From Escherichia phage UB, in the sequence record MH383160: a stretch of 64,000 nucleotides of DNA; one strand, 5' to 3'. Position 1 is the first letter of the stretch; every line of letters begins with the position of its first letter. Shown here piece after piece: positions 48,119 through 52,113 of this stretch. Position numbers and translations under genes: made by a program. The notes below the pieces were generated by a model. That model was not told the DNA's origin. It made no database searches and worked only from the letters and a program-made list of their open reading frames with translations.

Positions 48119-48208
<90 letters not shown>

Positions 48209-48229
48209 AGAAGTAAGATAACCAACAAG

Positions 48230-48393
<164 letters not shown>

Positions 48394-48436
48394 ATTGACC
48401 TCTTTAGATTAAAACCCCCAGTTTTCTTCTTGAACC

Positions 48437-48534
<98 letters not shown>

Positions 48535-48553
48535 GCATACTCGAAGTACCTCT

Positions 48554-48668
<115 letters not shown>

Positions 48669-48703
48669 ATAAGCTACTGAATCGGGAATCACAACCTCCC
48701 CTC

Positions 48704-48955
<252 letters not shown>

Positions 48956-49904: not shown

Positions 49905-50421
<517 letters not shown>

Positions 50422-50439
50422 ATACCCAACTTTAATTAA

Positions 50440-50765
50440 AAAAATGGATGGTGACGCTTTTAAACGCCGCTGTTAATTCAGCTTTATAACCATCCGTTTT
50501 AACTTGCCTTTCGGCTACCTTGACGTGGGGCGTACAGGCTGCTAAAAGCAACTTCTGTAAACATATTTCCACGCCTTACCCTTTTAAATAAAAGTCCATC
50601 CGGTTTTCCAGTTTGGTGAAGGACTGTCACCTCTAGTTTCAACCTGCTAGTCAAGTAATAATTGCCTATCGTCCAATTATCAAACCCGTCTAGGTTAACA
50701 TTCACCACTTCCTAGAGTACCAGAGATCTTGTTCTGGATAGCATCGACGTAACTTACACCATATA
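50440..50765 (-). ncRNA. candidate structured non-coding RNA (unclassified)
   Basis: G+C-enriched ~330-bp block with many short inverted repeats; only ORF has an alternative start, no RBS and atypical codons; promoter directly upstream. Confidence 0.3.
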
Positions 50766-50774
50766 CGTCTGATT

Positions 50775-50803
50775 GTGGAATTCATTATATCAGTACTGAA
50801 CTA
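50775..50803 (-). promoter_or_regulatory. extended -10 promoter (TTCAGTACTGATATAAT)
   Basis: TGATATAAT with conserved palindrome in spacer; weak -35. Confidence 0.45.
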
Positions 50804-51063: not shown

Positions 51064-51225
<162 letters not shown>

Positions 51226-51229
<4 letters not shown>

Positions 51230-51390
51230 GTTCGTACCATTATTTCAATAAAGAACCACGGATACGCTTCATGGTTTATAAGTTTATCGTATTCTGCTGG
51301 GTCTGACATGATTTCCCAATGATACTTTCTCCAGTTACCGAAACCTGCATATCTAAAATTAATGTCATTCATCCATTCTTCATGCGTCAT
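51226..51390 (-). CDS. small MTHEEW-family protein (54 aa)
   Basis: N-terminus MTHEEWMNDI. Confidence 0.5.
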
Positions 51391-51441: not shown

Positions 51442-51984
<543 letters not shown>

Positions 51985-51998
51985 AATATTATATTTTA

Positions 51999-52070
51999 TA
52001 AAGGGCCGGAGAATCGAACTCCGATTGGATTCTTAGAAGGAATCTGTTTTATCCATTAAACTAGCCCCTC
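51999..52070 (-). tRNA. tRNA-Arg (anticodon UCU)
   Basis: Acceptor GAGGGGC/GCCCUUU with G-U pairs, D-arm GUUUAAUGGAUAAAAC, anticodon stem GAUUC/GAAUC loop CUUCUAA, T-arm CGGAGUUCGAUUCUCCG. Confidence 0.7.
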
Positions 52071-52113
52071 AGTACTAATAATTATATCACATCTTTATGT
52101 GATGTCCAATTAT

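Follow-up and report, generated by a model that had tools for sequence, protein, structure and literature searches.

Two predicted small RNA genes beside the tRNA cluster of Escherichia phage UB, one of which represents a new pseudoknotted RNA family of virulent phages

Since the 1970s, phage tRNA clusters have been known to encode small stable RNAs, among them the species 1 and 2 RNAs of T4 and the RNAs of T5. The T4 species come from the same precursors as the tRNAs and, to our knowledge, no function has been assigned to any of the stable RNAs of the two phages. The T4 record has its two species immediately behind tRNA-Arg, under the names rnaC and rnaD ("small, stable RNA; species 1/2"), and the T5 record lists eight RNAs of the tRNA region (RNAI, RNAIII, RNAIV, RNA1, RNA2, RNA2H, RNA3 and RNAX) that are described either as stable with an unknown function or as tRNA-like. 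Another small RNA that is matured by the tRNA-processing enzymes, tmRNA, has serial H-type pseudoknots. GOLLD and ROOL are phage and prophage RNAs near tRNA islands that have no known function, and ROOL was reported to be non-essential (PMC12286853). Here, we analysed a stretch of 64,000 nucleotides of Escherichia phage UB (sequence record MH383160), the whole of which is called the window below, and in particular a block on its minus strand (50438-50782) that lies between the gene 50032..50421 and the -10 box of a promoter (50784-50789). According to BLAST, the window belongs to a jumbo phage of the 121Q/PBECO4/SP27 type (Asteriusvirus). An earlier note, which was made from the letters alone, had taken the block for a G+C-enriched non-coding stretch that may be a structured RNA and was possibly tRNA-related. 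The comparative evidence indicates that the block consists of two separable small RNA genes, module A (50590-50782) and module B (50438-50579), and module A represents a new family within a long-known, unexplained kind of RNA.

The T4 and T5 stable RNAs appear to be the closest analogues of the modules in terms of niche and probable biogenesis. Similar to module A, rnaC and rnaD are located in a phage tRNA cluster, on the tRNA strand and beside a tRNA gene, and they stand side by side as modules A and B do; their lengths are 139 and 119 nt compared to ~190 and 142 nt for the modules. Some of the T5 stable RNAs abut tRNAs and some follow a promoter of their own, and Novosibvirus has module A in the equivalent place. 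However, rnaC ends in a tRNA-like T-arm (GGUUCGAAUCC) and acceptor, whereas module A is an array of hairpins and pseudoknots without such a T-arm, and RNA2H of T5 (172 nt) has a long terminal helix that closes it and no motif in common with module A. Two of our models, R1, a covariance model from a plain MAFFT alignment of nine enterobacterial-type members, and R2, gave no match in the T4 tRNA region at E<=10, and neither did R2 in 49 kb of T5 (20-69 kb) at the same threshold. With no model matches and no common motifs by eye, homology to rnaC, rnaD or the T5 stable RNAs was rejected. GOLLD and ROOL, like module A, are phage-encoded, elaborate and pseudoknotted non-coding RNAs that are often found near tRNA islands. 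However, they measure from 500 to over 800 nt, form homo-oligomeric cages, have hosts mostly outside Enterobacterales and also occur in prophages, whereas module A is much shorter and was found in virulent phages only. The Rfam models of GOLLD and ROOL matched neither the window region (E<=1) nor seven homologous loci (E<=0.01). In the case of tmRNA, the likeness is one of architecture only; module A has neither a tRNA-like domain nor a tag reading frame.

The division into two modules was revealed by a BLAST search of the block against 50,697 phage records, a homology search that the earlier note had called for and that returned matches in other phage genomes. The whole block is 97-99% identical within Asteriusvirus and ~80% identical, with an insertion, in the Klebsiella RaK2-like phages. 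Its promoter-proximal half (about 50595-50783) alone has an identity of 85-91% to Bragavirus (T4-like Proteus, Morganella and Shigella phages) and to Novosibvirus (T5-like Proteus phages) as well as a partial match to Aeromonas phage 65, and the distal half alone matches phage JNE01. A separate copy of the promoter motif immediately precedes module B in the RaK2-like phages and JNE01; the window lacks this copy, and module A there leads directly into module B. The two predicted genes are as follows:

50590..50782, minus strand: module A, a structured RNA of ~190 nt; R1 match at 50588-50782 with 238.7 bits; BLAST homology ends at its borders
50438..50579, minus strand: module B, a structured RNA of 142 nt; 121Q/RaK2-like phages only

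Module A was found by BLAST in about 75 virulent phage genomes from three unrelated lineages, i.e., the RaK2/121Q-like jumbo phages, the T4-like Bragavirus and Aeromonas phages, and the T5-like Novosibvirus, and it is present in a diverged form in about 20 Aeromonas T4-like phages. R1 retrieved 18 full-length copies from 5-6 lineages with E values of 1e-19 to 1e-73, including the diverged Aeromonas members and those from IMG/VR, and scans of the IMG/VR and JGI metagenomes added only a handful of members. The conserved-core pattern of module A had no copies in 185,579 bacterial and archaeal species genomes (one genome each), nor did BLAST detect any among 5,426 complete E. coli genomes and 72,556 plasmids. 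A host or plasmid origin was rejected, there being no match in any of these three sets, and the family appears to be confined to phages, namely to virulent phages and not prophages. No text in the literature was found to print the sequence of the block or to describe module A, which does not fully exclude a prior description, and we regard module A as an undescribed RNA family.

Several other candidates for membership were discarded. Weak R1 matches in the window at 2127-2310 and 3906-4090 lie within long open reading frames (ORFs), and a model search with the filters off detected no second copy of module A between 44 and 58 kb. The loose pattern GACTAGCAG..TAGAGG occurred at 120 loci, all of which were chance matches except for the known members, and the matches of loci L137 and L145 to the module A patterns were also due to chance.

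The case for a structure rests on comparative evidence because the folding energy of the single sequence is unremarkable (z about -3 on both strands for 369 nt and -1.3 for module A alone) and is not strand-specific. The helices were drawn by hand from alignments with 5- and 6-nt indels and paired substitutions, and were then tested. In the plain MAFFT alignment of the nine members, 96.2% of the cells were paired and 16 pairs had double changes, compared to 0-3 in a slid control, in which the 3' partners were shifted by 1-3 columns, and to 5.1 in column shuffles. In an alignment of 15 members, which leans toward the structure since it was fitted to the model, 95.8% of the cells were paired and 27 of the 44 pairs were compensatory, compared to 6-10 in the slid control; the plain MAFFT result serves as the unbiased check. 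These results support a fold of seven hairpins and three pseudoknots, with one pseudoknot at each end and one in the core. Because of invariant U-G pairs, the RNA is assigned to the minus strand. About 45 nucleotides of module A are invariant, mostly unpaired and concentrated in the 3' core. All three stems that the earlier note had pointed out proved to be real and form helices in the consensus structures: P6 of module A corresponds to GGTGAAGGACTGTCACC (50615-50631), the GNRA hairpin of module B to CCTTTCGG (50506-50515) and one arm of the three-way junction of module B to GACGCTTTTAAACGCC (50453-50468). The predicted elements of module A are, from 5' to 3':

50775..50778, minus strand: 5' strand CCAC of pseudoknot PK3, with a conserved AA behind it; its partner is GUGG in the P3 loop (50705-50708)
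50743..50773, minus strand: P1 hairpin AUCaGACGUA/UACGUCGAU with the conserved 12-nt loop (U)AUGGUGUAAG; six of nine pairs compensatory
50720..50737, minus strand: P2, a variable hairpin CCAG/CUGG, also CCG/CGG and UCAG/CUGA, longer in L008, an IMG/VR member; 5- and 6-nt indels
50689..50716, minus strand: P3 hairpin UCUAGG/CCUAGA; five of six pairs compensatory, 98.9% paired; GUGG in the loop (50705-50708) is the 3' strand of PK3
50681..50688, minus strand: J3/4, the near-invariant unpaired segment CGGGnUUG; its columns do not vary in A2, A3 and A6
50658..50680, minus strand: P4 hairpin AUAAUUG/CAAUUAU, closing the invariant loop GACGAUA(n)G (50665-50673); compensatory variation at all seven pairs, 97-100% paired
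50633..50656, minus strand: P5 (ACUUG/CAGGU) and PK1, the loop CUAG pairing with a downstream CUAG as an H-type pseudoknot
50615..50631, minus strand: P6 hairpin GGUGA/UCACC with the 7-nt loop CnnyCCU; GUCC (50621-50624) is the 5' strand of PK2
50600..50611, minus strand: P7 hairpin CUGG-AAAA-CCGG, inside PK2; invariant in the enterobacterial-type members
50594..50597, minus strand: 3' strand GGAC of PK2, within the conserved AUGGR

All three pseudoknots vary between the members with their pairing kept. PK3 is formed by CCAC/GUGG, by GCAC/GUGC in Aeromonas and by CUAC/GUAG in L008, where it was read by hand (99-100% paired). In PK1, a change from U-A to A-U occurred independently in the Aeromonas phages and in the tandem copies of the metagenome contig L142 (100% paired), and PK2 is formed by GUCC/GGAC, ACCC/GGGU, GCCC/GGGC, AUCC/GGAU or AUUCC/GGAAU (99% paired). 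Among the hairpins, the P1 stem is wholly rewritten in the L142b copy with its loop kept, P5 has C-G, G-C and A-U pairs as well as A-U to C-G changes, and a single stem position of P6 is occupied by G-C, A-U, U-A or C-G. P1 of the Aeromonas members was misaligned by the model, and a hairpin with a similar loop is visible there by eye.

A number of further pairings and motifs were rejected. A terminal helix between 5' AAUUCCA and 3' UGGAnUU was 77% paired and showed no covariation, and the 3' GGRN covaries with the P6 loop as PK2. Two pairings by RNAalifold, a long-range one between CCR before P2 and the 3' UGG and one between the second CUAG and CUGG in P7, are disrupted in L142a and L142b, both of which retain PK1. 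Pairings of GUUUG in J3/4 with CAAAC in J6/7 and of AUC in J1/2 with GAU in L4, which were tested by hand, showed no covariation and had mismatches in RaK2 and PM2. The P1 loop (50752-50760, minus strand) reads AUG GUG UAA, a start-Val-stop mini-ORF, in all of the enterobacterial-type members and not in Aeromonas or L008; this mini-ORF in loop L1, the GGA motifs of the CsrA type and a mimic of the tRNA-Lys anticodon loop in the 3' tail are not conserved in the family.

The evidence for module B is thinner than for module A. Its consensus, which was based on four sequences (the window, JNE01, RaK2 and KP13-7), has 37 pairs, four of which are compensatory. It comprises a closing helix of 7 bp, GGCGUGG/CCACGUC, in which KP13-7 has the changes G to A and C to U, a long interrupted hairpin, the hairpin GCC-GAAA-GGC (50506-50515) and a 3' domain, which is followed by a gene:

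50446..50495, minus strand: three-way junction with a 7-bp closing stem GGAUGGU/ACCAUCC and two small hairpins
50438..50444, minus strand: U7 tract; from its sequence, the probable tail of an intrinsic terminator
50032..50421, minus strand: downstream gene of 129 aa (phrog_38341) that lacks its own promoter; 17 nt separate the U tract from its start

The junction stem is followed by A and U7. A simple terminator scan did not call this 3' end because the stem closes a branched junction. In RaK2 (L004 10747-10811), a second copy of the junction with compensatory changes is located directly after tRNA-Ser, which suggests that the three-way junction may be a reusable terminator module in the 121Q/RaK2-like phages. 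As the gene 50032..50421 lacks a promoter of its own, it must be read through modules A and B.

Outside the window, the homologues of module A are unannotated or lie under doubtful "hypothetical protein" features, inside a tRNA array and on the same strand as the tRNAs. The copy lies between tRNA-Gly and tRNA-Asp in PM2 and SdyM006, between two tRNA-Leu genes in Proteus phage 2 and between tRNA-Pro and tRNA-Thr in Aeromonas phages AP1 and P19. On one IMG/VR contig, it is upstream of tRNA-Thr/Ser/Gly, and on metagenome contigs, it adjoins tRNA-Arg or tRNA-Leu. The very A+T-rich metagenome contig L142 has two diverged copies in tandem around tRNA-Arg(ACG):

2099-2284 and 2416-2608 of L142, minus strand: tandem copies of module A; a long U-rich run comes after the downstream one

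Based on the model coordinates, module A starts 0-3 nt past the 3' end of a tRNA in five lineages (PM2, SdyM006, Proteus phage 2, AP1 and L142a), and in the first three of these, the next tRNA follows the end of module A after 3-8 nt. The flanking tRNAs are complete genes that are not interrupted. Since such spacers leave no room for a promoter, the anatomy of these loci suggests that module A is made within the tRNA precursor and freed by tRNA processing. The idea of a structured RNA that is linked to the tRNA cluster is borne out by the covarying helices and pseudoknots of the minus strand and by the homologues inside tRNA arrays; the idea of one RNA is not, as there are two genes. In Aeromonas phage 65, the annotated gene 65p135 (L003 3123-3323), a call by GeneMarkS only, covers the 5' third of the module A homologue (R1 match at L003 2981-3176) and is probably a false gene. 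Long unannotated gaps are also present in T4-like tRNA arrays (L001 4610-4972; L003 3548-3990 and 4320-4561) and could hold other RNA genes; in these gaps, Rfam gave only a tRNA-Sec-like match at L003 4333-4422.

In the window, the genes and tRNAs neighbouring the block are all on the minus strand. The G+C content of 50438-50782 (0.414) exceeds those of the whole window (0.337) and the flanks (0.25-0.33), which, together with an ORF that has neither a family nor conservation, agrees with the earlier description of a G+C-enriched non-coding block. The strong promoter that the note had placed near 50.78 kb is likewise better than chance would allow, although its -35 is poor:

50784..50800, minus strand: promoter TTCAGTACTGATATAAT; -10 TATAAT at 50784-50789 with an extended TG (TGATATAAT) and a poor -35

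The window contains two exact copies of the 17-mer TTCAGTACTGATATAAT (50784-50800 and 50013-50029), compared to 0.02 expected, and a simple sigma-70 scan did not list the first of them because of the poor -35. The second copy stands before the tRNA-Ser/Met/Asn operon; therefore, the block is driven by a promoter of the tRNA-operon type. The same motif heads module B in JNE01 and the downstream gene in Sharanji. Two side observations concern this part of the window. tRNA-Ser (49911-50002), to which ARAGORN assigned the anticodon ACT, which is unusual through its unmodified-looking A34, is also annotated in Sharanji and present in JNE01. Another non-coding block at 48203-48739, which is presumably the 'first' one of the earlier note, has a G+C content of 0.38-0.40, lies beside tRNA-Thr (48129-48202) and was found by BLAST in Asteriusvirus phages only.

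Natural deletion variants suggest that both modules are accessory and dispensable. Sharanji has kept the promoter and the first 37 nt of module A, after which the start of the downstream gene follows; this clean deletion of ~330 bp removes most of module A and all of module B so that the same promoter directly heads the gene. In JNE01, module A is absent and module B is kept. Module A has an identity of 91% between the window and the T4-like Proteus phage PM2, whereas the two phages share only 58-69% identity in their isoacceptor tRNAs for Gly, Arg, Met and Asn. A tblastn search with ten ORFs of the window against twelve homologous loci revealed no shared neighbouring ORF, and a conserved phage partner protein beside module A was rejected on the same search. 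Because of this difference in identity, the end of the homology at the borders of the RNA and the lack of a shared ORF, module A appears to have been exchanged alone between phage families and/or to be much more constrained than the tRNAs. An HNH homing endonuclease gene (NUMOD4 and HNH_3; 51442-51966, minus strand) adjoins tRNA-Arg (51998-52071) about 660 bp upstream of the cassette, and in SdyM006, a segD-like endonuclease gene lies beside the module A copy. T4 SegB offers an analogue for an endonuclease-driven transfer (PMC2330249), and it may be conjectured that nearby homing endonucleases were the vehicle of the exchange. Between the endonuclease gene and the cassette, the ORFs 51065-51229 and 51226-51390 (minus strand) are tandem 54-aa paralogues that both start with MTHEEWM and have no Pfam family; Sharanji has three 165-nt genes in a row that resemble them.

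As a whole, we read modules A and B as stable accessory RNAs that are made with the phage tRNAs and probably act in trans on a host factor, a reading that we consider reasonably probable. In Escherichia phage UB, both would be transcribed leftwards from the promoter at 50784-50800, and transcription would end at the branched terminator (50438-50495). Where module A lies between tRNAs, it would be cut out by RNase P, acting on the downstream tRNA, and by the pathway that trims the 3' end of the upstream tRNA, and where it has its own promoter, as in the window, it would be a primary transcript. It would then build up as a stable RNA, the terminal pseudoknots protecting its ends; the predicted stability follows from both ends being buried in pseudoknots. 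Action in trans would be through the ~45 invariant, mostly unpaired nucleotides, which may bind a host component that Enterobacterales and Aeromonas have in common, and is proposed because no phage protein travels with module A and three unrelated lineages keep it. The accessory role would resemble that of the tRNA island, i.e., translation support or counter-defence. Module B would be a second, lineage-restricted small RNA, the three-way junction and U7 of which double as a terminator. Our confidence is highest for the release from a tRNA precursor or the transcription from its own promoter, lower for the stability and lowest for the action in trans on a host component.

Several points weigh against this reading. 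All of the properties of the mature RNA are deduced from genome sequences, no specific host target is indicated, and the existence of viable phages without module A suggests that it is not needed in the laboratory. The family is narrow, with about six independent lineages and many close kin, so some of the covariation counts repeat single events, and P7, the weakest helix, is absent in Aeromonas and L008. In the window, the -10 box and the first conserved base of module A are only 1 nt apart (50776-50789, minus strand); at this distance, the usual start site would fall in or after CCAC of PK3 and could remove part of it. In L139 and the RaK2-like copies, the -10 box is 7-9 nt further upstream. 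Finally, module A stands between the promoter and the gene 50032..50421, and an effect in cis through attenuation at the module B terminator, albeit unlikely, is conceivable in this phage. Modules A and B would then form a leader or riboswitch-like attenuator of that gene, or elsewhere of a downstream tRNA. The only evident promoter of the gene precedes module A, the putative terminator with U7 is 17 nt away from the start codon, in Sharanji this promoter directly drives the gene, and a multi-pseudoknot fold with invariant junction bases is typical of aptamers. However, the element downstream of module A varies (tRNA-Asp, tRNA-Leu, tRNA-Thr, another promoter or nothing) and no gene is conserved there, no alternative pairing joins module A to an expression platform, the modules occur apart, and the RaK2-like phages have a promoter between them. 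Moreover, the Rfam families of riboswitches, self-cleaving ribozymes and group I/II introns had no match in the block (E<=1) or in seven homologous loci (E<=0.01). This last result also bears on the equally improbable proposal that module A is a self-cleaving or catalytic RNA that helps to cut the tRNA precursor, e.g., by freeing the 3' end of the upstream tRNA. The compact multi-pseudoknot fold, the ~45 invariant and mostly unpaired bases and the start of module A at a tRNA 3' end in five lineages would suit such a role. Yet, the promoter-driven copies in the window, L139 and the RaK2-like phages have no upstream tRNA to free, and host enzymes already process phage tRNAs, as is established for T4. 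A bolder reading takes module A for a new functional RNA class with an active role, either a ribozyme or else a decoy or high-affinity aptamer with which virulent phages oppose a host system directed at tRNAs or nucleotide signals. As a self-contained counter-defence cassette that needs no protein, it would be traded between T4-like, T5-like and jumbo phages. This reading seems slightly less improbable, though still doubtful.

The three remaining explanations are effectively excluded. A diverged tRNA or tmRNA, or a homologue of the T4 species 1/2 or T5 stable RNAs, is very improbable even though the niche and strand are those of the tRNAs, T4 and T5 have stable RNAs there, some of which are tRNA-like, and the 3' domain of module B, with its 7-bp closing stem and two arms, vaguely recalls a reduced cloverleaf. 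ARAGORN found six tRNAs in the window, none of them in 50422-50800, and reported no tmRNA; the covariance models of Rfam 15 (E<=1, permissive filters), RF00005, RF00023 and the tRNA-Sec models among them, had no match in the block; R1 and R2 matched nothing in the tRNA regions of T4 or T5 (E<=10); and hairpins and pseudoknots without a T-arm like that of rnaC do not make a cloverleaf. The 'tRNA-related' of the earlier note therefore holds by linkage and not by descent, and the relation of both modules to the tRNAs is probably one of linkage and shared processing. A recombination or homing target, or a replication or packaging signal, at the DNA level has even less to commend it. The region is rich in homing endonucleases (the HNH gene of the window and the segD-like gene of SdyM006) and module A was exchanged between phage families, but the helices retain G-U pairs, both invariant and variable, which on the opposite strand would turn into A-C mismatches or in duplex DNA would not matter, the orientation to tRNAs and promoters is constant, and the compensatory changes preserve pairing rather than sequence. 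Least probable of all is a short protein gene. Several Asteriusvirus records annotate hypothetical proteins over modules A and B, and ORFs of 69 aa (50499..50708, the sole sizeable one) and 46 aa (50432..50572) are present. However, the former has a GTG start and no ribosome-binding site, and neither ORF has a Pfam or PHROG match. ORF 50499..50708 also spans the junction of modules A and B, which occur separately in other phages and between which the RaK2-like phages have their insertion. In its homologues, the frame is broken by 5- and 6-nt indels, and the substitutions are paired and compensatory rather than third-position changes. The doubt about this ORF in the earlier note was thus justified.

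Read as an accessory RNA that is made with the phage tRNAs, module A adds to the T4 and T5 stable RNAs what these lack, a fold with three pseudoknots that is supported by covariation. Its presence in three unrelated lineages argues that its function would not depend on a phage-specific protein. That function is made testable by near-isogenic phages with (121Q/PBECO4-type) and without module A (Sharanji, G17 and JNE01). The annotation of genomes is also corrected, as many records place hypothetical proteins on modules A and B. Module A would be an RNA-only cargo of the tRNA islands, which are now seen as modules for counter-defence and translation support.

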